The notes under the pieces: generated by a model
What the model was told of the DNA's origin: nothing
Seen by the model: the letters and a program-made list of their open reading frames with translations, nothing else
Database searches by the model: none
Made by a program: the position numbers and the translations under genes
Shown: in pieces, positions 11,576 through 30,970 of the stretch
Layout of the letters: each line of letters opens with the position of its first letter
Position numbering within the stretch: position 1 is the stretch's first letter
Source: Verrucomicrobiota bacterium
Lineage (GTDB): Bacteria > Verrucomicrobiota > Verrucomicrobiia > Opitutales > Coraliomargaritaceae
Length of the DNA: 30,971 nt
Assembly: GCA_039815375.1 (NCBI GenBank)
Contig: JBCBZJ010000029.1
Coordinates: 1 to 30,971, forward strand
Reading direction: 5' to 3'

Positions 11576-14500
11576 TCAGTTTTCAGATGGTTGAATCCTG
11601 ATTCTAATGAAGCGGGCACCTTCTTGAATTGCAAAGCCGAGGTGACAGAATTCGTAGTCTTCGTCGAGGTCCTCGGTTGTGATGTCGGTCGGACGATAGG
11701 GTGTTTCAACAAGCTCAACATCGCCCCAGTCGGTCAGGTCACTACTTGTCATGACGACGTAGTCATATTCAGTTTGGGTCTTGTGACGGACATAGGTGAA
11801 CGTGAATGAGCCATCGTCTTCAGTCCTTAGCACAGGTAGGCCGGGAGCAGCGTCTGTGCCGTAGATCAGGCGCGGGACGTCGTATTTACTCGGGTCGTCG
11901 AGACCGAATAGGAAGTAGGCGATGTTGGCGAGGCCATTGCCGGACCTGTCAACCATGTCCTCGGAACCATCTTCCGCGAGCCCGTAGTCTTGACGGAAGA
12001 TTTGCACCGGATCTGCCGGTGGGTTTAAGCTGAGCGTAGTTATTGCCAGATAAACGTCATCGATCTGAGCATACTTGTTCTTGCTTGCATTGGAGCTGCT
12101 GAGGAAGCGCATGAAGAGATGCTTGCCTACACCGTCGGTCGTACTGCTGTCGAGTGCGTCAGTGACAGCAGCCAGCTCCCAAGTGTTGTTGGTGGTTTCA
12201 ACCACATCCAGTGTGAGAACAACGGATGGCGTGCCGCCAATGAGATTATCATCGGTATAATACAGTTCTGCAATCATGTGCATGTTGCTATTCCAACCGC
12301 CACCATCTCTCCAATTGAACTCCAGGTTGAAGCCAGTCTCGGTGCCCGTTATTACATAACCGGTATCCTGGCTGAAGATCATCGATCCGTTGTAGCCGGC
12401 AACAGGTCCATTTATGTAAGTATCTGCGTTACCGTTATCATCGCTGATTACATACCATATTGTAGTTCCTCCGGATCCCATGTCGCCATCACGTAAGCTA
12501 CCGCTTGATCCTGGGCGATCAGCATAATCAATCAGAACTTCCTGAACGACGGTAAAGACGCTGATGTTTAAGGTCGCTGTGTCGGTGTATTCGCCATCAC
12601 TCACCTGGACGGTCCATGAGTGGGCACCTGCTTCGGACGCGCTGGGTGTGCCGCTGAGCGTGCCGTCAGGAGCAATCGTTAGCCAGTCCGTGCCCGATCC
12701 GCTATCGCGGCTGATTTTGCTGTAGGTTAGCGGATCGCTTTCAGGATCGGTCGCACTGTCTTCGATGGTGTCACTGTAAGCGATGTTCTGTGTCGCAATG
12801 GATACATTGATTGGGTCGGCGTTAAATGCCGGCGGATCGTTCACCGGAGCTCCGGGGTAAGAGGCGTAGAGTTCCGCAACCTGCTGATCACCGAATGCAA
12901 CATCGTAGACGCGGAGATCGTCGATCAGGCCGTCGAAATAAGGAGAACCATTTCGGTCTACGCCCAGCTGGATGCGGCTAAAGGTGTTACCTAGATCAGA
13001 CGTAGCTCCGGCGAATACTCCATTGCGATAGATTCGAGTGGAAATTCCATCGCAGGAGACGACAAGGTGCGCCCAGTCGAGGCCCATTGGTCCTATTTCG
13101 AAGCTATCGCTAGCCTGGTAACGGTAATTGTTGCCATTTATGACGTCGATCTTGAAGCCGGTTGCGTCGCTGTTGTTGTTAAACACTCCAGCATACTGCA
13201 CTTGTGTTTCCACGTTGGATTTGACCCATAGGGATACGGTGTATTGCTGCCAGGCTTTTTCGGAGATGTTCTTATTTACGGTATCATTACTGCCGTCGAA
13301 GGAGAGCGCGCCGCCATCGATGCCATCGACCCAGCTCGCACCGTTGATTGTTCCGTTGGTGCCGTTTCCGGAACTGTCGGTAGCCGTAGTACCTGAGCCG
13401 TCGTCGAACTTCCAATGTAGAGAAAGGTCAGGCTCGGCTTCCACTTCAATTGTTATCGTTGCAGTATCCATGCCGCCGTTACCGTCGGAGACCTGAATGG
13501 TAAATGAATTCGAGCCGAGATCACCTGCCAACGGTGTGCCGCCGAGCGTGCCGTCGGTAGCGACGCTCAGCCATGCCGGGCCGCCGGTTTTGATGTAGGT
13601 CAATACATCACCGTCAGTATCGACGACGTGGCGGGTCAGAGTATAGCTATAGGGGGCATCCTGTACTGCGTCCGGTCCGCTGAACGGAGAGACATCGATA
13701 AAGGTTGGCTTGTAATTTGTCGGGGCACCGCCCGGATACTCCCAGGGAGAGAGATAGGCGTTGCTAATAACGGTTCGTTCAATGCCGGGGCCGGACCAAG
13801 CTGCGGAAGCGGATTCTGCGAAACCATTGGCTGTTACGTGCAGGAGTTCGATGTAGTATTTCTGCCCAGCGGTGAGGTCGAAGCTTACCGACTGCTGCTC
13901 GGGAGCATTATCCCAATTATTGGTACCGGAAGGCGTGTAAGCAATGCGGGTGGCATTGGCTGGGTCTTCATCCGTACTGAGCCACAGTTCCGCATTGTTA
14001 TTGCCCGCGACCCAGAAGGTATAGCTGCCCGTGACCGGTGGGTGAACATAGCCACGGACGCGCGTTCCGTAATTGTCTGCCCAATCGAATGGTATCTCGA
14101 GGCTTGTCAGTTGATTGCTACCTGAAGGGTTGTCGGGGTAGTCTTCGTGGTCGGTAAGATTGGAGATATAACCTCCCCAGAATCCTCGCCACCACTCACG
14201 TAAAATACTGCCTTCAACCTGGATATTGAGGGTGGCGGTCTGAGTCAGTCCGTTGGCGTCTTCCGTTTCGATAGTAAAGGAGTTTAGGCCAATGTTTTCG
14301 GTTAGGGGTGTACCGCTGAGCGTGCCGTCGGTGGCAACGACCAGCCAGTCTACTCCACCAATCTTGCGCCAGGCTACCAACGTGTCGCCGGCATCCGGAT
14401 CGAACGCAGCATCGGTTATAGAGTCGCTGTATGCGGCTCCTGCGACTCCATTGGTGGCACTGAAAGGATCACTGTAAAATTGCGGTGGATCGTTGGTGTC

Positions 14501-17500
14501 TACCACCCTGATTGTGAGGGTTGCTTCGTCGTAGCCAGTCTTGCCATCGAAGACCTGGACAGTGAAGGAGCCGGTCCCCAAATCACTCGTCGCCGGTGTG
14601 CCACCAAGTGTACCGTCAGCGTTCACAATCAACCACTCTGGACCATTGAGTTTGCTGTAGGTGAGCACGTTGTTGTCCGCATCCGTAGCGCTGCCTGCAA
14701 TTGTGTCGCTATAGGGTGTATTGTCGGGAGCGTTCGATGCGCTGAACGGATCGTTGGTAAAGACCGGTGGGATGTTGAGGTCAATTACCGTAATCGTCAA
14801 AGTGGCTTCATCGGAACCGCCCTTACGGTCGCCCGTAATAATTGTAAAGGTGTTCTCGCCTTCGTCACTCTTGGTGGGGATGCCACCGAGGGTGCCGTCA
14901 GCGTTCACAATCAACCAATCCGGACCGTCTTTCTTGTAATAGAAGACGGTATCGCCATCCGGGTCCGTGGCGCCGTCAACGATTGAGCCACTATAAGAAT
15001 CAAGCACGTTAGCGGCCGTGGAACTGAGAGGGTTGGTGAGGAAGGCTGGTGCGTTGTTGCCCGGAGCAGGAACCCAGGGAGATAGATAAGCGCCATCGAT
15101 AATCGTCTTATCGAAGTCGGGTCCAGACCAATGCACATAGACATTGTCGTTGGCTCGGTTTTCCCGGTGCAGCACTTCAATGTAAAGGATATCACCGGCA
15201 AGGAGCTCCAAGCGGTTACGTTCTGGATCTCCCAAATCTTCAGCGATTTTTCGTTTCGTGGCTGGATCGTCGTGGGTGCCAAGCCAAAGTTCCGCCCGAT
15301 CATCCGCCGAAAGCCAGAACTCGTAGGTGCCGCTTTCACGAATATGTAGGTAACCAGCGGTCTTGGCGCCGTATCGATCACCTACAGTATTGTATGTGAG
15401 CTCGGTCAGTTCAATGGTCGCATTCGGGTTATCGGGAAAGTCGGGATCAGAAGTCAGATCAGTAATCGCATTTCTGCCAGCTTGGAACCCTGTCCAGATT
15501 TCCCGCAGAATCGTTCCGCTGCCGCCCGGTGAGAGAATGGAGATGCTTATGTTCGCCGTATTAGCCCCGCCTTCGGAGTCGGTCACCTCGACCGTGACGT
15601 CATGAATGCCTGCATCAGCTAGAGTAGGGGTGCCGGTGAGTGTGCCGTCCGAGTTGACGGTCAACCAGGCAGGACCATCAACTTTGCCGAAGGTAAGTGC
15701 ATCGCCTTCAAGATCTTTGGCCCAGTCGGCAACCGTTCCTACATAGGCGACGTCGGTGTTTCCTTTGGGGGCGTCGAAGCTGTCCTCGACAAAGTAAGGT
15801 GGATAATTGGTTTGAACGCTATCTACGGTCACATCAAGCGTGGCATTGCGTGTTGTCGATCCGTCCATGACCTGCACGTTGAGTGTGTAGTTTCCGGTCA
15901 GGCTGAAGCCCACAGTTGTTTCGAGGGCGTTGGCATCCTGAAAGGTCACGTTACCTGGACCTGTCAGCTTTGACCAGGTCACGGTGATACCATTATCGAG
16001 CATTCTGAGTTCACGCACTACAGCTTTTACTTTAAACAGTTCACTGTAAGGCGATTCGCGATTCCAAGCCACGAGTGGAGAACCGAACAACCCGTTGCCT
16101 GACCATGATGAGAGCTCATCCCATATGCCACCTTCGAGCTGCTCGGGAACAATGACATTCTGCATGGCGTCCCAACCGAGGCGATCCCTCAGCTGTGTAT
16201 AGTAGAGAGAGCGCGGGGTTACGAATGTGGGGCTTCCTTGTGCGCTGCTATTGAATTCGACAAATCCCTGAGGGTGATCTTCTTTGACTCTGATTTTAGC
16301 AAAATTGCCGATAGACCAGCTCATAGCGCTAACAGGCGCTTCGATCATTTGCCCGAAATTGGGGCTGCTCCTGTTGGTTGCATGGTTGTTCCAGAGCATG
16401 ATCTGCGCCCCGGTCCAGCCATGTCCACTACTGGCACCTCCCTGACCCCGGTCACGAACGTCAACCCGGTTCGTTTTGATATTATCATAAATCTGGCCTA
16501 TTGCCCAACGGTGATGGGGGCCGGTAGCTGCAGCGTTGTCTTCGCCAAGGCAGTCGACAAAGGCGAGAGGTCCAGGAGTAAACGAACCGGTTTGAATGAA
16601 GCGTATGTTATCCTTGCCCCATATTCGGTGCACGAGGATGTTCTGCGCATCGTCGATGGCTACGGCAGCACTGGAAGTGCGGTCTCCGGTTACAATGTCG
16701 TAGCTGGCGCAATCTTCAACAGTCCCAAAGATACTCCTTCCAGAAATTTGAGCCGTGCGTGACTGGAAAAAACGCGATGTAATTTGCCGAATCCAGAAAT
16801 CCCGTGCTGCCCATGCCACCGCCGTAAACCGTGCGTGGTCATTATCCTCCGGTCCCTCAAAGGTGGATTCGAAATAGATGTTTTCGACTCCTATCCGTCT
16901 GGTGACTGATTCGTGCTCGACTCGTGAGACATAGCAACCGGTGCCACCATTCTCAGTATAAGCATAGTAGGGATCGTATTGCTGGAAAAGACCTGAATGA
17001 AGGAATAGTTCGTTACCCTCGACCTTTGTAACGAAATGCCGAATGCTCGTATCATAGGGGGCAGACCAATTGGCTATCGTATCAATATCCGTTATCCATT
17101 GATTATTGAAGGCGTAGTAAATATTGATTTCATCACCTGCGCGAAAGATGGAACCATCTTCGACCTTAATGGATTTAGAACCGACGGGAATATAATCGGT
17201 GCCCACCATGTTTGTGCCTTCGACTGCAGTAAATCCCGAACCCTGACCCATGGCGACGGCATGAACTCCACCGGCAACATCGACAATTACCTTTGTTCCA
17301 CCGGTCAAGCGATTACCGGAGCCACGCAGCACGACACCGTCATCAATGAGCAGTAGTGTGTCGGTTGTCGTAAAAGTGCCTGGCTCAAGCAGGACGGCTC
17401 CACGGAAACCATTTTCGTCCATCGGCATGTCGCCGACAGCATCGATCGCAGCCTGGATGGCCGCAGTATCGTCACCGCCGCTGGGTGATACGGTAATTTT

Positions 17501-17737
17501 GGCCTCAACAAAGGGAATCGGCACGCCGCCGCCTTTGTAGCCGGCGCGTGAGTAGTCGGGCACGACATTACCGCGATTTTCACCTTCCTGCCCGTTGTTG
17601 TCGTAGGGTGTATATTCGAGTTTGCCGTCCACTTCGTAGATCAACGAACTGGTCGCTGCGGGTAGATCGGAACGAACCAGACTACCTATGGCGAGGGCTG
17701 TAAAAAATGTGATGCGAAACATTTTTACTAGAGACAT
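11576..17737 (-). CDS. 2053-aa secreted modular protein: parallel beta-helix (pectate-lyase-superfamily-like) head, PKD-like domain, 6 cadherin/He_PIG-like Ig repeats, 2 PA14 domains, LamG domain, unknown domain, conserved C-terminal domain
   Basis: Signal peptide; VPDYSRAGYKGGG...DDTAAIQAAID...GAVLLEPGTF (beta-helix N-cap); WSKLTGPGNVTF (PKD); repeats N.PP.F...ATD.D.D.L.Y.K..GP.WL.V..DGTL.GTP; PA14 GTYEFWLSADDRAELWL and GSYTFWVAGNNNAELWL; LamG HWKFDDGSGTTATDSSGNG...FDGLIDDLRVY. Confidence 0.85.
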   Translation of the reverse strand: MSLVKMFRITFFTALAIGSLVRSDLPAATSSLIYEVDGKLEYTPYDNNGQEGENRGNVVPDYSRAGYKGGGVPIPFVEAKITVSPSGGDDTAAIQAAIDAVGDMPMDENGFRGAVLLEPGTFTTTDTLLLIDDGVVLRGSGNRLTGGTKVIVDVAGGVHAVAMGQGSGFTAVEGTNMVGTDYIPVGSKSIKVEDGSIFRAGDEINIYYAFNNQWITDIDTIANWSAPYDTSIRHFVTKVEGNELFLHSGLFQQYDPYYAYTENGGTGCYVSRVEHESVTRRIGVENIYFESTFEGPEDNDHARFTAVAWAARDFWIRQITSRFFQSRTAQISGRSIFGTVEDCASYDIVTGDRTSSAAVAIDDAQNILVHRIWGKDNIRFIQTGSFTPGPLAFVDCLGEDNAAATGPHHRWAIGQIYDNIKTNRVDVRDRGQGGASSGHGWTGAQIMLWNNHATNRSSPNFGQMIEAPVSAMSWSIGNFAKIRVKEDHPQGFVEFNSSAQGSPTFVTPRSLYYTQLRDRLGWDAMQNVIVPEQLEGGIWDELSSWSGNGLFGSPLVAWNRESPYSELFKVKAVVRELRMLDNGITVTWSKLTGPGNVTFQDANALETTVGFSLTGNYTLNVQVMDGSTTRNATLDVTVDSVQTNYPPYFVEDSFDAPKGNTDVAYVGTVADWAKDLEGDALTFGKVDGPAWLTVNSDGTLTGTPTLADAGIHDVTVEVTDSEGGANTANISISILSPGGSGTILREIWTGFQAGRNAITDLTSDPDFPDNPNATIELTELTYNTVGDRYGAKTAGYLHIRESGTYEFWLSADDRAELWLGTHDDPATKRKIAEDLGDPERNRLELLAGDILYIEVLHRENRANDNVYVHWSGPDFDKTIIDGAYLSPWVPAPGNNAPAFLTNPLSSTAANVLDSYSGSIVDGATDPDGDTVFYYKKDGPDWLIVNADGTLGGIPTKSDEGENTFTIITGDRKGGSDEATLTITVIDLNIPPVFTNDPFSASNAPDNTPYSDTIAGSATDADNNVLTYSKLNGPEWLIVNADGTLGGTPATSDLGTGSFTVQVFDGKTGYDEATLTIRVVDTNDPPQFYSDPFSATNGVAGAAYSDSITDAAFDPDAGDTLVAWRKIGGVDWLVVATDGTLSGTPLTENIGLNSFTIETEDANGLTQTATLNIQVEGSILREWWRGFWGGYISNLTDHEDYPDNPSGSNQLTSLEIPFDWADNYGTRVRGYVHPPVTGSYTFWVAGNNNAELWLSTDEDPANATRIAYTPSGTNNWDNAPEQQSVSFDLTAGQKYYIELLHVTANGFAESASAAWSGPGIERTVISNAYLSPWEYPGGAPTNYKPTFIDVSPFSGPDAVQDAPYSYTLTRHVVDTDGDVLTYIKTGGPAWLSVATDGTLGGTPLAGDLGSNSFTIQVSDGNGGMDTATITIEVEAEPDLSLHWKFDDGSGTTATDSSGNGTNGTINGASWVDGIDGGALSFDGSNDTVNKNISEKAWQQYTVSLWVKSNVETQVQYAGVFNNNSDATGFKIDVINGNNYRYQASDSFEIGPMGLDWAHLVVSCDGISTRIYRNGVFAGATSDLGNTFSRIQLGVDRNGSPYFDGLIDDLRVYDVAFGDQQVAELYASYPGAPVNDPPAFNADPINVSIATQNIAYSDTIEDSATDPESDPLTYSKISRDSGSGTDWLTIAPDGTLSGTPSASEAGAHSWTVQVSDGEYTDTATLNISVFTVVQEVLIDYADRPGSSGSLRDGDMGSGGTTIWYVISDDNGNADTYINGPVAGYNGSMIFSQDTGYVITGTETGFNLEFNWRDGGGWNSNMHMIAELYYTDDNLIGGTPSVVLTLDVVETTNNTWELAAVTDALDSSTTDGVGKHLFMRFLSSSNASKNKYAQIDDVYLAITTLSLNPPADPVQIFRQDYGLAEDGSEDMVDRSGNGLANIAYFLFGLDDPSKYDVPRLIYGTDAAPGLPVLRTEDDGSFTFTYVRHKTQTEYDYVVMTSSDLTDWGDVELVETPYRPTDITTEDLDEDYEFCHLGFAIQEGARFIRIRIQPSEN
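11579..12010 (-). repeat. Shared C-terminal domain, copy 1 (paralogous to 28280..28711)
   Basis: 144 aa aligned without gaps to the C-terminus of the 28277 protein; 37 mismatches by manual count. Confidence 0.95.
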
Positions 17738-18168: not shown

Positions 18169-20388
18169 TTACTCTACCTGCGGTATGGTAAAAAGTGTAG
18201 ATGCGTTGTTCACGCCAAAGCCGATGTAGCCAATGCTGACGAAAGACTCTGAGAAGGCGAGTTTTTGCGTCATTCCGTCAATGGTTAGGGCGGCGGTGCG
18301 CAGATCGATATCCACATCGAGTCGACATTCCAATTCGTCGCTGCTGGATATATCCTTATTCGGACTTCGGCTCCACTTGCCACCTCCTTCGAATAACGCC
18401 ATTTTATTGCCACCGATCCATGAACCGGCCAGCAATGCTGCGTTCGTATCGCCGTGGCTGCTGAGGACTAGGAATCCGTTACGGGAATTGCTGCTGTCGG
18501 CTGCTTTCATTTTCCAGGTCACAGAGAATTTGCCCGCATTTCGACCCGGATTGAGTTTTCTAAGCACAATTTGCTGAGGACCGGAGGCAGTAACACGATA
18601 ACCGTAGGAAGTCTTTTCTAATCCTGCTGCACCGGAAAAGCCATCGGCATAGGTCTTGGTGCCTTTTGTGGATGGCTTGCCTCCGCTGGACTTGATTGGC
18701 TTAGTACGAGCGGACGTTGACAGGTTGACCGGCTGAACGACCGGAGTAAAATCTTCTCCCGCCACCGGCAGGTTCTTGCCATCTAGTTTCAGGACCATGC
18801 CCGGAGCGGAAATATCGCCCTCGTCTCCGGCTGAGGTGCCCATTGTATCGATGAGTTCTCCGGGAATCCGCAGTGTGCGACCCTTGATAGTAACTCGGTT
18901 TTTTATATTCGATGCCCGTTCGGCTAATAAATCCTGAGCCCAAACGTGTTGGACATCTTCGATCGAATCGGCAAATTCCAGAATCAACTCATCGTAATGG
19001 CCCGCTATCCCGATCAGCTGAGTTGCGTCCTTTATTTTGACTGTCACCTTAGCGCGCGGTTCTAACCATTTGTTTTCCGGAGTCACGCGCCCCTCCGTGG
19101 CGATGCCGGTTGGTCCGTTCGGATACGTCGAAGTAAAAACGTAGGGTCTGATGCCATTGCACTCGACCTCGGGCAACGGCATATTGCGGGCCATGATGGC
19201 CGGAGCGCTCTGGCTGACCATCTTTCCATAGGTAGCCTTGTTCCAAGTATCCCATTTTGTGAACACACAGCGGTCGATCAATTCATCATCCGAAGAGAGA
19301 TAGACACCTTCGCCGGCTGGGAATGCCGGTGCGATTCGCGACCAACGGCCGAATCGCTCAACTTCATTGATACGCTTCTGCATCCTACGCGGGCCGGAGA
19401 GTTGATGGTGTAGGTCTTTGCCTTCCATCAAACGTTCTCCATAGTTCGGGTGACGCTTGCTGGCTACTACTACACCAAGACCGATCGCAGCGTTGCAGTC
19501 ATCTTGGAAATTGATTAGGGCACGATACTTCGGTTGCTGTTGGGTCTGCCGGAGGATGTCATGCACCCGGCGAATACTCACTGAGGTCATTAGAAGAGGA
19601 GGTGCGTCATAGGTGCGGAAGGTGTCCGAGTATTGAAGAATCTTCATCATGCGATCACGAATTCTGCCAGCCACGTAGGGAGAAGGGTAGGAGGGTTGTT
19701 CCTTGTCCCAGTTCGGATTCAGATTGCCGGCCGGGGTAGCATATTCGATCTGTAATTCCGGATAGATTTCCTCCTTTACTTTGAAGCAGTGAAAGCTGCC
19801 CGTGTCGCCTCCATCGACTTTCCAGTAGGTGATTCCGGCTTCTTTGGACCATTCCACAAAGGTTCGTGCTTCTTCTTTCTTGATATCGCCACGAAACCAT
19901 AGCCCAAGCGAATTCCATCCCTGCGCCTGGATCTCTTCATTGAATTTCTTCAATAACTCAGGCGGGTTCATCCCTTTGTAAGGAGGGAAGTCGCCTGGAT
20001 CTGCTACGGAATTAAAGAAGGCCCGACCTCCTCCGAAGAACTCTGCTTTGTCCTTGGTCTGCCAGCCATGGTCTATAAGAAAGATGTAGTCCTCGCGTCC
20101 GCGTGGTAGGTAGGTGCTTGCCCAACCATCCGTTGGATTAAACAGGTTATGATAGGTCATGTGCTCCCGCGCCGCCGGATTTGTGATCTTACCCAAACTG
20201 TTGATTTCCCCACCGCGCTGAATCCAGTAATTCTGCGCATACCAGGTGCACCAGTAGTTTGCGGAATTCACTGGACTATCAGGTACCAAGTTGGGATGTT
20301 GAGCACCTATTGTAGGGGACGCAGCTATCAGTGCTGCGAGTAAGAGGGAGGGTAGATTCAATTTCACACTTTCTGGAAATTTACTCAT
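18169..20388 (-). CDS. Secreted putative clan GH-D-like (GH27/GH36-like) glycoside hydrolase of unrecognised family, with a C-terminal beta-sandwich domain
   Basis: Likely start at Met 20388 (or GTG 20367) before the signal peptide LPSLLLAALIAASPTIGA. Motifs NYWCTWYAQ, FLIDHGWQ, LGLW, YWKVDGG and TFRTYD parallel the GH27/36 order W-x-x-W, IDDGW, YxKxD, R...D. Confidence 0.6.
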   Translation of the reverse strand: MSKFPESVKLNLPSLLLAALIAASPTIGAQHPNLVPDSPVNSANYWCTWYAQNYWIQRGGEINSLGKITNPAAREHMTYHNLFNPTDGWASTYLPRGREDYIFLIDHGWQTKDKAEFFGGGRAFFNSVADPGDFPPYKGMNPPELLKKFNEEIQAQGWNSLGLWFRGDIKKEEARTFVEWSKEAGITYWKVDGGDTGSFHCFKVKEEIYPELQIEYATPAGNLNPNWDKEQPSYPSPYVAGRIRDRMMKILQYSDTFRTYDAPPLLMTSVSIRRVHDILRQTQQQPKYRALINFQDDCNAAIGLGVVVASKRHPNYGERLMEGKDLHHQLSGPRRMQKRINEVERFGRWSRIAPAFPAGEGVYLSSDDELIDRCVFTKWDTWNKATYGKMVSQSAPAIMARNMPLPEVECNGIRPYVFTSTYPNGPTGIATEGRVTPENKWLEPRAKVTVKIKDATQLIGIAGHYDELILEFADSIEDVQHVWAQDLLAERASNIKNRVTIKGRTLRIPGELIDTMGTSAGDEGDISAPGMVLKLDGKNLPVAGEDFTPVVQPVNLSTSARTKPIKSSGGKPSTKGTKTYADGFSGAAGLEKTSYGYRVTASGPQQIVLRKLNPGRNAGKFSVTWKMKAADSSNSRNGFLVLSSHGDTNAALLAGSWIGGNKMALFEGGGKWSRSPNKDISSSDELECRLDVDIDLRTAALTIDGMTQKLAFSESFVSIGYIGFGVNNASTLFTIPQVE

Positions 20389-20399
20389 TTCAAGTATGC

Positions 20400-20955
20400 T
20401 TATTTTTAGAGGTCGGGGTAATGCTGCATGATTATCTTTGAGCCATTTGTCCATCTGTTTAGACATTTCGCTGAGGATTTCCGGATGTGATTTGGCAAGG
20501 TTGTTTTGCTCGCTGATATCTGCTTCGAAATCGAATAGCTCACCTTCTCGTTCGGGCTGATAGTTACGGACATACTTGAATTTAGCATACAAGCCTGCGG
20601 TCGCTGGAGTCTGGAAGAATGGATTCAGTTTCACCTTTCCTTCTGAACCATTGTAGATGGGAATGCGCATATTCAGGAAAGTTCGGACGTCGTTTATTTC
20701 CCTAGTCAGAAGCGACGTTAGACTATTTTTATCAAGTGCGTGCTCAGATTGCTGCGCGCCAGCTATCTCAATTAGAGTAGGGGAATGTCTATTAGAGCCT
20801 GAGTGCGATTTCGGGTGTTTCTTCGGTTAATAAACAAAAGTTGCCACACGTATGCCTCCCTCGTATCTAGGACTTTTGCTGTCGCGTAGCGGACCGTAAG
20901 ATGCACTGCGACCGTTGGCTCTATTTCGGATATGAAAATGATGGGCGTATTTTTA
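20400..20955 (-). pseudogene. Decayed C-terminal half of a sulfatase; its last segment is in frame with the downstream hydrolase
   Basis: Minus-strand pieces AKNTPIIFISE, YGPLRDSKSPRYEGGIRVATFVY*P, PTLIEIAG...LDKNSLTSLL and ELFDFEADISEQNNLAKSHPE...WLKDNHAALP follow S1 sulfatase motif order, with frameshifts and a stop. Confidence 0.85.
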
Positions 20956-25082: not shown

Positions 25083-26726
25083 TTAATCAAAATATATAGA
25101 TTCAGGTGGTTGATCAAAAATCAAACCCTTTACTGAAAGTCCATTTTTATGTAACCCTGTGTTCTTTTTCCATTTCTCACTTACTTCAAAATAACCGTAT
25201 ACTTCTTTTGTACTTGGGGGCAACTTGATCTTAAGCATGGCACAAGCTCCCGAGATTATTTTACCGTTTTTCAATGCTGGTTGCCCATTATCTGAATTTG
25301 CGTAAATGAGATCTTGTTCACGTAATTCCTTTGCTGATCCATCCTCCATTACAAATTTTAATTCTAAGTTAACTTGAGCTTTGGACTTTTGATTTTTCCC
25401 ATGTGAAAAAGCAAAGTAGATTTCCTCTAAATTGTCGCAATTTAATGAAAACTGCTGAGGCTGATTCATATTATTCAATTCAACGTAACTTGATTGCCAG
25501 ATAGGTTCTTTGGCGAGCTCTGTCACACCATTGTCAGGATATTCTCTGATTGATATATTCCGGTATTCTGCCGCAGCCCCTTCGGACTGCAGGCAAATAT
25601 GTCCTCTATGAGGAATTAAGCTGGTCGCTTTGTTCTGGAGTACGTCATTCACCCAAACGGTTAACATCTCACCTTCAACTAATATCCTGACCTTATTCCA
25701 TTCTCCAACAGGTTTATTATTCGTTCCACCTAGTTTTTGAGTGTTTCGTCCTTTCAGTTTTGTTGAATCTGTGACCATGATCACTTGATCAATATTCCAA
25801 AAGTCACCCACATTACCGAAGGCTCCCTGAACTTCCAAACTTCTAGGCCAGGGGAAATTTCCCTGATTTAAAGCCCTAATTAAAAAACCCGTATTCCCTT
25901 TAGTGAGGTGACGAAACTCCAAATTAAGTTCAAAATTTTTGTACTTTCCCACGGTTTGAATCCAGCCTTTGGGCTTACCCTTGTTGTGAAATACTCCGTC
26001 CCTCACAGACCAGATTTCTTTCATCTCGTCTGAACCGTGAGTCCAACCGGTAAAGTCTCTGCCGTTGAAAAGAGAGATTTCAGCCACCTCTTTGCTGTCA
26101 GGCAGTTTTTTCAAAAGAATGTCTTTAAATTGCATATCACCCTTATGGTCCTGAAGAACGATATAACCTCGAGGATGCCTCATAAAACCAATATGTTTAC
26201 CAAATTTTGTTTCAGATATTTTTTGAAAAAAATCGTTATCCGTTTTGAAGTCAGCAGTTTTGAATCCATTCAAATAAAATTGAATGTGATGCCCGTTTTT
26301 TATAATATGAACATCATTCCAATCATCACTCTTCATCTTCCCCAGTGCCAGATTTTGAATCCAATAACAGGCGCCGGAAGACTGTAATGGTTCAGATTTT
26401 CTGTTGAGTATCTGCATCTCCACACCACTGTGCCAGTGCTTTTCATAGGCTTCGGAAACACCAATAAAAACTCCGCTGTTTACACCTTTGGGAGCCTTCC
26501 ATTTCAATTTCAGTTCAAAGTTTTCCAACTGTTCTTTGAATAGAAGATCGCCGCCTCCTTTTTTCAGGGAGAGAACAGCTCCTTCGAAAGACCAGTTTTG
26601 GTGGACTGTTGCCTTTTGATAATTTCGCCAGTTTGTTAAATCTGTAATATCACGGAATTCTTCCGCATGGAGCGCGGAATTTATCAGGTAAAATAAAATC
26701 AGAAAACAAGTATAAACACTTTTCAT
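25083..26726 (-). CDS. Secreted protein with two DUF1080 (3-keto-glycoside-processing family) domains and a divergent C-terminal domain
   Basis: Start MKSVYTCFLILF at 26726 overlaps the upstream stop (ATGA). Domain 1: ENFELKLKWK...NSGVF...EMQIL...WNDVHI...GYIVLQDH...FKDI. Domain 2: SLFNGRDFTGW...NFELNLEFR...EVQ...GEWN...GHICLQSEG...YRNI. Confidence 0.88.
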   Translation of the reverse strand: MKSVYTCFLILFYLINSALHAEEFRDITDLTNWRNYQKATVHQNWSFEGAVLSLKKGGGDLLFKEQLENFELKLKWKAPKGVNSGVFIGVSEAYEKHWHSGVEMQILNRKSEPLQSSGACYWIQNLALGKMKSDDWNDVHIIKNGHHIQFYLNGFKTADFKTDNDFFQKISETKFGKHIGFMRHPRGYIVLQDHKGDMQFKDILLKKLPDSKEVAEISLFNGRDFTGWTHGSDEMKEIWSVRDGVFHNKGKPKGWIQTVGKYKNFELNLEFRHLTKGNTGFLIRALNQGNFPWPRSLEVQGAFGNVGDFWNIDQVIMVTDSTKLKGRNTQKLGGTNNKPVGEWNKVRILVEGEMLTVWVNDVLQNKATSLIPHRGHICLQSEGAAAEYRNISIREYPDNGVTELAKEPIWQSSYVELNNMNQPQQFSLNCDNLEEIYFAFSHGKNQKSKAQVNLELKFVMEDGSAKELREQDLIYANSDNGQPALKNGKIISGACAMLKIKLPPSTKEVYGYFEVSEKWKKNTGLHKNGLSVKGLIFDQPPESIYFD

Positions 26727-28111
26727 TGATATTCTGCCAATGTTCTTGGCATATTGGCATTCGTTTTCTTCAGCCATTCGTGTAGTTGTTGTTTTAGCGA
26801 AGCGACTTTTTCAGGCATCTCTGACGCTAGATCGTTTTTTTCCCCGATGTCTTTACCAAGATCGAATAGTAGATACTCATCATTGTTCTGCTTCCAGATG
26901 AGTTTCCAGTCTCCTTGACGCACCGTGGATGCACCTTGAAAAAGACTACCTTTTCGGTGGTGAGGAAAATGCTGATACACTGGATGCGGTGTGTAGTTTC
27001 CATCACCATTCAACAGTGGAAAATACGAAATGCCATCCAGGCGTTTTGTCTCGTTTGGAATCGGGACCTTCGCTGCTTCCAGTAATGTTGGAAAGAAGTC
27101 GGCTGATGCCACTGGGATATCGGTTTGTCCGGATTGAATCCGGTCAGGCCAGCGGTAGATCAACGGAACTCGAATGCCGCCCTCGTAGACTTGTCCTTTT
27201 TTCCCGCGAAGCGGTTTTTGAGAGCGGCTTCCTCCATTGTCGGATGTGAAAATGACAATCGTGTTGTCCTTCAAGCCGAGGTCATCGATTGCTTTCAAAA
27301 CTGTGCCCACTGCGTCATCCATGCTTATAAGCATACCTTTATATTTAGGCTTACCCGCTAATGGCCGGGGATTATGCGGAGAATGGATCGTGTACAAGCT
27401 CAAATAAGCAAAGAAAGGGGTATCCTTGTTTTCCGTTACAAAAGAAATGGTTTCTTCTGCAAGGCGGTCAGTCAAGTACTCGCGATCTGGCCCGTCTTTT
27501 AATTCCGCATTTGCGTAGGGTGAGAAGTAAGCTCTCTTTCCTGCGGGCTGTCCATAGGCACAGCCGCCGATATTGACATCAAACCCTTGATTCTGCGGGT
27601 GCCAATCCATGTTGACGACGCCGTCTTTCGTTTTTTGCGACCCGGCGCCGGCCAGGTGCCACTTGCCGAAAAAGCCCGTTTTGTAACCTGCTGCCTTCAA
27701 GGCTTCCGCCAGTGTAATCTCGTCAAGGTGCAAATGACCTTCCATTTCTGCTTCCCAGAATCGGTTCTGAGGATTACTCAGAGCTTTCTTCTTCTTTGAA
27801 TAATATTCCTCGAATCCAACTCCCGGTATGTGTGACGTTAGTTTGAGGGAGGCTGGGCTTCGCCCCGTCAGGATCTCTGCACGAGACGGCGAGCAAACCG
27901 TTGCCGCGTAGGCAGAGGAGAAAACCATTCCCTCTTTGGAGAGTTTATCTACGTGAGGTGTCTCCGTTACCGCAGGATTTTGATAACCGACATCAGCCCA
28001 GCCTAAGTCATCGACAAGAATAAAAAGGATGTTGGGTTTCCTGTCAGCACATGCACTGAGCAAAATCCCTGTCTGAATGAACAGGATTATGAGCAGTACC
28101 TTATTCTTCAT
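26723..28111 (-). CDS. S1 sulfatase (S1_16-like), probable lipoprotein
   Basis: Likely start MKNKVLLIILFIQTGILLSAC (lipobox LSAC) at 28111; PNILFILVDDLGW, VCSPSRAEILTG, GKWHL, YFSPY, FTSDNGG, PLRGKKGQVYEGGIRVP. Confidence 0.92.
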   Translation of the reverse strand: MKNKVLLIILFIQTGILLSACADRKPNILFILVDDLGWADVGYQNPAVTETPHVDKLSKEGMVFSSAYAATVCSPSRAEILTGRSPASLKLTSHIPGVGFEEYYSKKKKALSNPQNRFWEAEMEGHLHLDEITLAEALKAAGYKTGFFGKWHLAGAGSQKTKDGVVNMDWHPQNQGFDVNIGGCAYGQPAGKRAYFSPYANAELKDGPDREYLTDRLAEETISFVTENKDTPFFAYLSLYTIHSPHNPRPLAGKPKYKGMLISMDDAVGTVLKAIDDLGLKDNTIVIFTSDNGGSRSQKPLRGKKGQVYEGGIRVPLIYRWPDRIQSGQTDIPVASADFFPTLLEAAKVPIPNETKRLDGISYFPLLNGDGNYTPHPVYQHFPHHRKGSLFQGASTVRQGDWKLIWKQNNDEYLLFDLGKDIGEKNDLASEMPEKVASLKQQLHEWLKKTNANMPRTLAEYQ

Positions 28112-28276: not shown

Positions 28277-30970
28277 TTAATTTCCCGTGGGATTAATCTC
28301 AATTCTGATGAAGCGAGCACCTTCTTCGACTGCAAAGCCGAGATGACAAAGCTCGTAGTCTTCATCGAGGTCTTCAGTTGTTGTATCCGTTGGTCTGTAA
28401 GGTGTTTCGACCAACTCTACGTTACCCCACTCGGCCAGATTGTTGCTGGTCATAACGGCGTATTCATATTCGGTCTGAGTCTTGTGGCGCACGTAGCTGA
28501 AGGTGAATGAGTTGTCCGTTTCAGGTGTTAGTATCGGCAATCCTGCAGTGTTATCTGTGCCATAGATCAGACTCGGGACGCTTTGTACATTGGGATCTCC
28601 GAGACCGAAGAGAAAGTAGGCGATATTGGCGAGGCCGTTACCGGACAGGTCGGTCATATCTTCCGAACCGTCGGTCGCCAAACCGTACTGGGTGCGGAAG
28701 TTCTCAACGGGCGTCAGGAGAGGAGAATCCAAACCGAGGACAAACTGGATCGTGCAGGCATCGGCAGTTGTATTGCCATTGCTGCCGAGAGTAACGGTGA
28801 TCGTATCGCCTGGAGAGAGTGTACCAAGGGCACCGTCGAAATCTGTCGCGGATCCGTCGGAAGTGACGTTTGCGGTACTGGAGAGTGTGCTGTTTACCCA
28901 GACGTCGAGTCTCACTCCATTGCCGTTAGAGTTAGCGTTGTGCACAGAACCGCTGATACGAACGTCGCCAGCCTCGCCAGCTTGAAGGGTGTATGCTGCT
29001 ATAGCGTAGTATGAATCACTACCCGGATGCCAGCCTGAGTCTGCCGCGCCAACCCGGCCATATTGGAAATTACCCTGACCCGAATCGTTGAATGCGATGC
29101 TGCCTGTGTTGGTGAAAATGCCTTCAGCCCAGAAGCTATTGGAGACTTCTACGCTGTTAGCCATCAACGACTGAAAGTTTCCGGGATTGAAAGTCCCGTT
29201 GTTGGGGTTGAGATCGGAAGCACCGCCGGGGTTCCAGAGGTAGCTCCAGCCCGTGGCTGGCATTTCTGTTCCGTTGTAGCCATCGCCACCTGCACTGGGG
29301 AAGTCTGCAGCAAAGTCTGCGAAGATTCCTGTCAGGATGGTATCTTCGAGGACAGTGATTTGTAGCGTGGCCGAAACGGAAAGGGCGCCATCAGAGACCT
29401 GAACGGTCCATGAGTGTTCGCCGACGTTTTCAGGTGCGGGTGTGCCGCCAAGTGTGCCATCACCAGTAATCGTCAACCAGTCTGCGCCTGGACCGCTGCT
29501 GTGACTTAACTTACTATAAGTCAGGCTATCGCCGATATCCTGATCGGTAGCACTTCCGCTGATGGTATCACTGTAGGCTTCCCCTTCAGTAACATCTTCG
29601 GCGCTGATCGGATCGACTACGAATACCGGAGGATCGTTTACGTCGATAACCGTGATATTTAAGGTTGCTGTATCCGTGCCGCCCTGACCGTCACTTACTT
29701 GGATGAAGAAGGCATTCAAGTTGATATCATCATTGGTTGGCGTACCGCTGAGGCTTCCATTTTCGTTGACTGTTAACCATTCTGGACCGGAAAGCTTGTT
29801 GTAGGTCAGCGGATCTCCTTCCAAATCGGTAGCGCTGCCAGCGATGGTATCGCTGTATACGCTGTTTTGAGTTGCGTTCGTGGTGCTAAACGGATTTGCA
29901 GTGAAACTAGGCGGTGAGATCGTTGGTTCGCTATCGGTTGTTACGAAAACAACCCAGTCATCTGTGTTTGCGGAGGGTGGGGAGCCGAGACTGACGGCAT
30001 TCCCACCGGTAACTTGACTCACTGTTCCTGTTTGTAGGCTACCGCCATTACGCGGATCGAACCAATAGACATCGAGTGTTGCTGTTTGCCCAGTCAGATC
30101 CAATGAGGTGGTGCCTCCATCGGGCAGGTAAACGACGTATTGTATGCCGGGCCAGGCCAGACAGTAGTTACCGGTTCCAACGAGTGAGTCGTCGGGGTTC
30201 ATCTGAGTCATGTCCCAAAGGTTAGTTGATAAGAAGTCCGTCGCTCGCACCATCGTCTGGTAATAGTCGAGATAGCGGTCGTAACCGTCTGCATTTTTGA
30301 AACCGGCATCTTGATTATTGTAGAAGCCAACGCCTGCAGCTCCTGCTGTGAATGCAGCCCAGACGGTGTTCTTACGCCAGTTATCGAGATTTGGGTATTC
30401 ACTTCCTGCAAAGGGCTCGTCATAGGAAATGATCCACTTACGTCCGCTGGCAGCTGAGCTGTTCCGGTAGGTGAGCACTTTATCATGACCCCATTCGCTC
30501 TGCTCAAAAAGACCCTGCAGGCTTATTCCGGTAAACGGTGTCTGGCCCAGCAGCTCATCGAAAAGTGCATCTCCCGGTCCAAACAGTGGATTATGCACAA
30601 CGATCTGATCGTTGTAAGGCAGTAGGTCGTTCACATAAGTCGAAAATGCGATTCGATCCGTGGTGTCGTTGGCATTACCATACGGTGGATTTGTCTGCCA
30701 GCTGTTCTCTTCACCGATGTTCCAGGTGACGGCATTGAGGTGGCCGAATCGCGCAACTAACTCCCGATAGTAGAGCTTGCGCGAATCGGCAAAGGTAATC
30801 TCAGGATCCGCCGGATCCCTGGCCTGGTTGGCGTGATACTCGAAGAAGGACTGGTTTTCCTGCTCGGTCAGAACAATCTGAGGCTTTAGGCCCTTGGTCA
30901 TCATATGATCCATAACGATCTGCCATTGCTCCAGCTTGGAGATATCGTAGATGTTCAGGTCATCTGTGAA
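28277..30970 (-). CDS. Modular extracellular protein, 5'-truncated by the window: DUF4038/DUF5060-like putative glycoside hydrolase barrel, collagen-binding-like domain, 2 Ig repeats, unknown beta-sandwich, conserved C-terminal domain
   Basis: Frame stays open to the edge (FTDDLNIYDISKLEQWQIVMDH...). KLYYRELVARFGH...WNIGEEN and SYDEP carry candidate catalytic acids; YCLA.PG..YVVYLP.GG...WFDPRNGG...DDWV matches the collagen-binding-like module; Ig repeats and C-terminus are as in 11576..17737. Confidence 0.8.
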   Translation of the reverse strand, partial: FTDDLNIYDISKLEQWQIVMDHMMTKGLKPQIVLTEQENQSFFEYHANQARDPADPEITFADSRKLYYRELVARFGHLNAVTWNIGEENSWQTNPPYGNANDTTDRIAFSTYVNDLLPYNDQIVVHNPLFGPGDALFDELLGQTPFTGISLQGLFEQSEWGHDKVLTYRNSSAASGRKWIISYDEPFAGSEYPNLDNWRKNTVWAAFTAGAAGVGFYNNQDAGFKNADGYDRYLDYYQTMVRATDFLSTNLWDMTQMNPDDSLVGTGNYCLAWPGIQYVVYLPDGGTTSLDLTGQTATLDVYWFDPRNGGSLQTGTVSQVTGGNAVSLGSPPSANTDDWVVFVTTDSEPTISPPSFTANPFSTTNATQNSVYSDTIAGSATDLEGDPLTYNKLSGPEWLTVNENGSLSGTPTNDDINLNAFFIQVSDGQGGTDTATLNITVIDVNDPPVFVVDPISAEDVTEGEAYSDTISGSATDQDIGDSLTYSKLSHSSGPGADWLTITGDGTLGGTPAPENVGEHSWTVQVSDGALSVSATLQITVLEDTILTGIFADFAADFPSAGGDGYNGTEMPATGWSYLWNPGGASDLNPNNGTFNPGNFQSLMANSVEVSNSFWAEGIFTNTGSIAFNDSGQGNFQYGRVGAADSGWHPGSDSYYAIAAYTLQAGEAGDVRISGSVHNANSNGNGVRLDVWVNSTLSSTANVTSDGSATDFDGALGTLSPGDTITVTLGSNGNTTADACTIQFVLGLDSPLLTPVENFRTQYGLATDGSEDMTDLSGNGLANIAYFLFGLGDPNVQSVPSLIYGTDNTAGLPILTPETDNSFTFSYVRHKTQTEYEYAVMTSNNLAEWGNVELVETPYRPTDTTTEDLDEDYELCHLGFAVEEGARFIRIEINPTGN
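28280..28711 (-). repeat. Shared C-terminal domain, copy 2 (paralogous to 11579..12010)
   Basis: PVENFRTQYGLATDGSEDMTDLSGNGLANIAYFLFGL...YVRHKTQTEY...ELVETPYRPTD...GARFIRIEINPTGN. Confidence 0.95.

Follow-up and report, generated by a model that had tools for sequence, protein, structure and literature searches.

In the sea, Verrucomicrobiota break down fucoidan and other sulfated glycans; in the gut, they live on mucin degradation as well. Amuc0953, an S1_20 mucin sulfatase of Akkermansia muciniphila with an SPI signal peptide, provides extracellular 3S-Gal activity, is absent from the medium and is surface-bound, and in the words of its authors 'an unknown mechanism must translocate' it (accessible text of PMC13524802, Nat Microbiol 2026; the accessible preprint version gives the same account). 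Its last domain was not resolved in the crystal and looks like a type 9 secretion system (T9SS) cargo's C-terminal domain (CTD) in an AlphaFold3 model, and the paralogue Amuc0451, which ends in PA14, is the source of the intracellular activity (PMC13524802). In the accessible part of that article, the likeness is a remark on the model of a single protein, with no family, range or test given. T9SS CTDs form a seven-stranded 3+4 Ig-like sandwich whose last strand has a conserved Lys (accessible text of PMC11285876). Beyond the one-sentence remark on Amuc0953, we found no published description of the domain family analysed here, in a search that covered subscription journals thinly.

The window, that is, the whole stretch of DNA that was analysed (30,971 nucleotides), is contig C53 of a 3.56-Mb genome that is 99.9% complete. 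The sequencing run that contains it best is a marine metagenome, possibly the very source of the DNA. Two of its genes, both on the (-) strand, end in the same 144-aa domain, hereafter the tail, which reaches the stop codon in each case: copy A at 11579..12010 (from translation and alignment, with an AlphaFold2 pLDDT of 94.0) and copy B at 28280..28711 (from alignment). The copies align without gaps and are identical at 107/144 residues, they contain the motifs quoted in the earlier note, and neither has a transmembrane helix in sequence or in the predicted model, so that its basic description of a shared ungapped C-terminal domain was re-found in full. At the DNA level they are identical at 308/432 positions (first, second and third codon positions: 114, 125 and 69 of 144, respectively). 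Because this identity is so low, and only 69/144 at the third codon position, an assembly duplicate is ruled out, and the copies are, judged by their codons, old paralogues that diverged under purifying selection.

Carrier A (11576..17737, (-) strand, 2053 aa) comprises, from its ORF and domain scans, a signal peptide (17666..17737, (-) strand, likely Sec when the translation is judged by eye), a pectate-lyase-like head, Ig/He_PIG repeats, two PA14 domains, LamG and the tail. The head (16103..17665, (-) strand) is pectate-lyase/DUF4955-like: the beta-helix label first given to this protein is backed by Atlas features (0.97-0.98) and by a Pfam match below the cut-off (PF12708, E 0.011), while a PDB sequence search with the head returned no match and no RNA datasets are listed with carrier A. 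Carrier B (28277..30970, (-) strand, 897 aa visible, 5' end lost at the contig end) shows, by the same scans, a head, Collagen_bind_2, two Ig repeats, a shared unnamed module and the tail. It had been taken as DUF4038-like, but Collagen_bind_2 is its sole match and it has no BLAST match to the apiosidase/DUF4038-type protein of the genome. The description of the carriers as two unrelated enzymes is true of their heads but not of their repeats (49-52% identical over ~195 aa), and because Ig/He_PIG repeats are common to both at ~50% identity, the carriers combine modules of a single kit with different heads.

The unnamed module (~200 aa, starting A-D-F-x-x-D-F-P) lies just before the tail in carrier B (window ~28712-29330, (-) strand) and in both carriers on contig C39 (G000:C39:26693-34640), and is also present in P0002. 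Elsewhere on the (-) strand of the window, the gene at 25083-26777 has a GC content of 0.39 against ~0.50 in most neighbours, which suggests a different origin; by eye, a sulfatase at 2-1033 gives way, close to the contig end, to glycine-rich sequence that looks unrelated, and an 833-aa ORF at 18169-20670 opens with an apparent sulfatase C-terminal remnant followed by a second signal peptide.

The tail proved not to be restricted to these two proteins, as about 20 proteins of the host genome carry it. A tblastn search with the window tails found two further copies, on C39, a profile of 17 relatives gave 17 matches, and a 43-sequence profile whose members come almost all from other genomes gave 19 matches at E<=1e-4 (best match to reversed host ORFs, E 0.76); an iterated profile, trained on its own matches and therefore with inflated E-values, gave 23 carriers. 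Among their passengers are two sulfatases, proteases of the S8, trypsin, M12 and PA-domain types, and FG-GAP, lamin-tail, PMP-repeat, beta-helix, adhesin-like and apiosidase-like proteins, a range for which the initial notion of a signal for large CAZymes was too narrow; 7/24 host proteins scanned had no Pfam family at all. Judged by eye, most carriers start with a signal-peptide-like segment and a few with an apparent uncleaved membrane anchor. The tail ends within 6 residues of the protein end in 20/23 carriers, the remainder being a trypsin with an internal tail (236 aa follow it) and two DUF1800 proteins with an N-terminal one. In the DUF1800 proteins L081 and L083 (G000:C62:260514-262817 and C33:4191-9764), this N-terminal tail stands right behind the signal peptide. 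In L085 and L086 (G000:C50:19097-21421 and C2:61018-63477), the sandwich half of the domain seems to come first and hairpin repeats later, the order of the tail reversed (by eye).

Against 1.84 billion cluster representatives, the tail profile produced 26,595 matches at E<=0.001 and 5,243 at 1e-10, counts that include proteins with only its N-terminal hairpin. Among 152 library proteins examined, 123 had the full domain and 29 the hairpin only, which in many proteins forms long TSP3-like repeats. The tail lay within 15 residues of the end in 112/123 full-domain proteins, often in tandem (the library ranking by total score favours tandem copies), with arrays of up to five tails and further N-terminal copies in P0097 and P0115. 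In 40 regions from 13 other genomes, picked from the best-scoring matches, 47/47 tail genes had a single, terminal copy. The domain is thus mostly but not always C-terminal, with a non-terminal minority of 3/23 host and 11/123 library proteins; no autotransporter barrel was found behind the non-terminal tails of 11 such proteins. In an even sample of the phylum, 119/201 genomes matched the tail profile at E<=1e-4 and 78/201 at 1e-8, with up to ~20 scored copies per genome. The few named relatives are all Verrucomicrobiota, the genome survey itself having been made within the phylum. Three small proteins, P0003, P0005 and P0010, join a cohesin-like N-terminal domain (labelled by eye in P0010) to one to three tails. 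Tandem tails in P0013 and P0030 are followed by a ~297-aa domain, which presumably resembles the TIGR02597 family; TIGR02597 was considered as a partner of the tail and rejected, being present in 3/5 genomes and not in the tail-bearing G096.

No catalogued family was found for the tail: Pfam and NCBIfam gave no match for either window copy at E<=0.1, and no family covering the tail among 17 members at E<=1. The best weak matches of these members, to TSP3_bac (E 0.026) and to the Amuc_1099 family (E 0.011, in 4/17), most likely reflect the loop only, and no Pfam CBM family matched better than E 0.09. A PDB sequence search with the tail found no match, the nearest Atlas clusters have no Pfam 38.1 family in common, and a collection scan with a window copy yielded no relative, the alignments being too diverse for the method. 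A C-terminal sorting or anchoring domain is a known kind of object, and the tail family is one without a model in the libraries searched; examined here were the assignment of the Amuc0953 terminus to it and its co-distribution and adjacency with PEP-CTERM genes.

The tail is predicted to fold as a helix-loop-helix hairpin followed by a fibronectin type III (FnIII)-like sandwich. In the AlphaFold2 model of copy A (58 sequences, pLDDT 94.0, pTM 0.86), helices 2-8 and 29-34 flank a 12-residue EF-hand/TSP3-like loop (11915..11950, (-) strand; from sequence, family conservation and model), and six strands then form the predicted sandwich (11588..11833, (-) strand; from model, structure search and conservation), which holds an S-x-D-L-x-x-W motif and a terminal F-x-R motif. 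The sandwich of an Akkermansia copy, modelled alone (pLDDT 86.9), likewise has six strands, counting strands of at least 3 residues in both models. In a structure search its best match was FnIII-type (Z 7.1, rmsd 2.6, 69 residues), as were most of the best 50 matches listed, none of which reached Z>=8; the full window model matched cytokine-receptor chains at Z 6.2 among its best 50 listed. T9SS CTD chains were absent from the best 50 matches listed in either VIA-align search, which does not by itself exclude that fold. Foldseek found no match at E<=0.001 with either model, and PF00041 (Fibronectin type III) matched none of 17 members.

Among 223 tail domains at <60% identity, conservation is highest at the loop Asn (91%), at Gly (87%) and Pro (85%), at the Ser (86%), Leu (85%) and Trp (92%) of S-x-D-L-x-x-W, and at the Phe (93%) and Arg (91%) of the last strand; this Arg stands 6-7 residues from the protein end in 129/196 terminal copies. 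The family consensus of the loop is D-x-D-G-D-G-x-x-N-x-x-E; the EF-hand/dockerin-like motif noted at first is there, but in degenerate form in both window copies, which have S and N at positions 3 and 5. Because position 12 is Glu in only 59% of members, Lys in 20% (the Akkermansia copies included) and Tyr in the window copies, calcium binding does not look like a constant of the family.

How does the tail compare with known C-terminal systems? The T9SS CTD models, which we take to be PF18962/TIGR04183 for type A and TIGR04131 for type B, matched neither the window copies at E<=0.1 nor any of 17 members at E<=1. PorV was found in 0/5 tail-bearing genomes, with a positive control in Bacteroides thetaiotaomicron, and SprA, PorP/SprF and the C25 peptidase (PorU) were not found in the host or in 5 genomes, searches in which no control genome was positive. 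The models suggest a further difference in strands and neighbours (six predicted strands with FnIII-like neighbours, against seven strands in a 3+4 arrangement), and the tail has an extra helix-loop-helix hairpin and is sometimes N-terminal or tandem. What it shares with the T9SS CTD is to be a small, apparently phylum-restricted, predicted beta-sandwich on many unrelated SPI proteins (signal peptides by eye), terminal in 20/23, 47/47 and 112/123 cases, whose last strand keeps a basic residue: Arg in 91% of the 223 tails, Lys in T9SS CTDs (PMC11285876, accessible text). The tail may work like a T9SS CTD, and the first impression that it does not read like one stands on sequence and on PorV, where membership fails.

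PEP-CTERM/exosortase sorting (PF07589) resembles the tail in being C-terminal, many-to-one, abundant in the same genomes and often encoded by neighbouring genes. The tail itself is no PEP-CTERM, as had been argued: it has no PEP motif, transmembrane helix or basic cluster, gives no PF07589 match, and is predicted to be a folded soluble domain. With dockerin and TSP3_bac (PF18884) it has in common the EF-hand-like loop of its consensus followed by a helix, but there is one loop, often degenerate and fused to a beta-sandwich, and no cohesin partner was found above the cut-off in five tail-bearing genomes.

The published Amuc0953 brings an experimentally studied carrier into the family. Its reverse cloning primer encodes LRLKVTR followed by a stop, and six homologues from genus g54 have a terminal tail that matches at E<=1e-20. 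One locus, L092, differs from two Amuc0953 primers by 1 and 2 mismatches; its residues 1-1263 align, without loss of register, with the full length of PDB chain 9s8x_A, an entry that, from its first residues and architecture, would be Amuc0953, and its remaining 129 residues match the tail profile at E 4e-22, the same single profile that finds the window copies at E 1e-31. Because of the primer-encoded LRLKVTR and the L092 match, we assign the CTD of Amuc0953 to the tail family on primer and homologue evidence. Like the window tails, it is the last domain of an SPI protein, here one that ends up surface-bound; the window and Akkermansia copies differ in length (144 vs ~127 aa) and are only ~11-18% identical. 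The contrast between Amuc0953 and Amuc0451 is nevertheless confounded, because two more domains set Amuc0953 apart from its paralogue, one N-terminal and mucin-binding, the other BACON; in the accessible text of PMC3048395, the two BACON proteins are Amuc_0953 and Amuc_2164.

Taken together, the terminal position, the fixed distance from Arg to the end, the unrelated passengers, the phylum-wide paralogy and the Amuc0953 data argue that the tail probably has a role in localisation, be it as an export and display tag or as an anchor. As a more specific reading we tentatively favour, at somewhat below even chances, a folded tag for export and surface display through a putative route, which would be other than T9SS. 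Passengers would cross the inner membrane by means of their predicted Sec signal peptide, an outer-membrane export route would then recognise them through the tail as last domain, presumably via the conserved last strand and its F-x-R, and they would thereafter be held on the cell surface; the surface location of Amuc0953 would be caused by its tail. The earlier note had offered an export, surface-display or complex-forming signal: C-terminal export and display are supported by position, passenger diversity, spread and the location of Amuc0953, and dockerin-like assembly is not. Several observations speak against the tag. N-terminal, internal and tandem copies are easier to reconcile with a binding module than with a signal confined to the end, generic FnIII domains are the best structural neighbours (Z 7.1 among the best 50 matches listed), and no dedicated machine was identified.

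As to such a machine, four secretin loci were found in the host genome, among them a T2SS-like cluster and an Amuc_1098-1101-like operon. The Amuc_1098-like secretin is uninformative for profiling because it is nearly universal (188/201 genomes), yet three strong tail genomes yielded none, with 4 candidates scored in each genome. GspK-like genes (117/201 genomes) co-distribute with tails and occur in 70/78 strong tail genomes; the 8 in which none was found are G069 and seven tail-bearing members of genus g54, in which 0/16 genomes had one. Two loci may be mentioned for their arrangement: at L063:6437-16681 (G000:C33:68436-78680), an Amuc_1101/1100/1098-like pilus-secretin operon is immediately followed by a tail-bearing S8 subtilase, which overlaps the end of the secretin gene and has a secA-like gene behind it (by eye), and at L064:2-8122 (G000:C25:90-10121), a protein of >3300 aa, of which 2707 aa were scanned against NCBIfam without a match, stands behind a PilQ-like secretin gene.

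Among the machinery candidates, the distribution of PEP-CTERM proteins fits that of tails best. They occur in 77/78 strong tail genomes (E<=1e-8), the exception being a 400-contig assembly; 44 of the 201 genomes have PEP-CTERM without a strong tail and 79 have neither. Tails at E<=1e-4 were scored in 17 PEP-negative genomes, and in 4/4 checked of the 16 weak ones the match was to the hairpin only. Fisher values for this co-occurrence overstate it, because the genomes fall in few clades. A broader idea would make the tail the cargo signal of an as yet undescribed, phylum-wide outer-membrane secretion and display system of Verrucomicrobiota, a functional counterpart of T9SS coupled to a PEP-CTERM/exosortase layer as recipient or anchor of the cargo; we regard this as speculative and rather unlikely.

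The same distribution bears on the alternative that survives best, namely that the tail is only a retained non-covalent anchor: a secretin system, of which the host has four loci, would export the passengers by reading other features, and the tail would dock on the envelope, with PEP-CTERM proteins or an associated glycan layer as the most likely site. We consider this a serious possibility, if on balance an unlikely one. In its favour, copies at N-termini and in tandem are in keeping with a binding module, and the four weak PEP-negative genomes checked have hairpin matches only; against it, the co-occurrence comes from few clades that are not phylogenetically independent, and 44 PEP-positive genomes lack a strong tail. 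Adjacency is most marked in Akkermansia, where a PEP-CTERM gene lies directly upstream of 12 of 16 tail loci and within 3 kb of another 3, with none near the last; the 12 represent 3 of 5 passenger groups. In the accessible text of PMC4960237, Amuc_0952 and Amuc_2165, by locus number the neighbours of Amuc_0953 and Amuc_2164, appear in the table of PEP-CTERM proteins. In G109 the single tail protein, GH18-BACON-tail, again stands behind a PEP-CTERM gene. In the host genome, 6/23 tail genes have a PEP-CTERM gene within 5 kb against 78/938 other long ORFs (Fisher p 0.011), an enrichment that becomes marginal against ORFs of at least 800 aa (17/163, p 0.044). Outside Akkermansia, by contrast, raw counts without a background give a PEP-CTERM gene directly upstream of just 3/47 tail genes and within 2.5 kb of 10/47, and the window contig with its two copies has none. 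Co-occurrence and adjacency are both confounded by kinship, adjacency is much weaker outside Akkermansia, and it may mirror the co-regulation of surface genes. At L052:1506-4740 (G096), a sialidase-BACON-tail gene is apparently split across two overlapping frames.

An ordinary accessory role is improbable, in our view: the tail would then be an FnIII-like module (for glycan or substrate binding, as a spacer or as a calcium-stabilised cap) dispersed through domain shuffling, without a part in localisation. The predicted FnIII-like fold is shared with accessory domains of glycosidases, the hairpin also occurs alone in TSP3-like repeats, and host carriers share other shuffled modules; yet PA14, Ig, LamG and BACON are internal in the very proteins where the tail is terminal in >90% of cases, the passengers act on substrates as unrelated as proteins and sulfated glycans, and the CBM searches reported above came out negative. 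The weakest alternative, calcium-dependent assembly of enzymes on a cohesin scaffold by a dockerin-like tail, we judge very improbable, for although the helix-loop-helix with its consensus is dockerin-like and P0003 and P0005 carry a precomputed Cohesin match beside the tail, there is one loop/helix unit instead of two, with a variable position 12, dockerin models matched none of 17 members at E<=1, and cohesin was found above the cut-off in 0/5 tail-bearing genomes (one sub-threshold match, control positive).

If the tail is indeed a tag for export and surface display, it would provide a sequence marker for the surface proteome of the whole phylum, and the question of how Verrucomicrobiota place large enzymes on their surface would become testable in a genetically tractable commensal, with PEP-CTERM proteins such as Amuc_0952 as the candidate partner layer.
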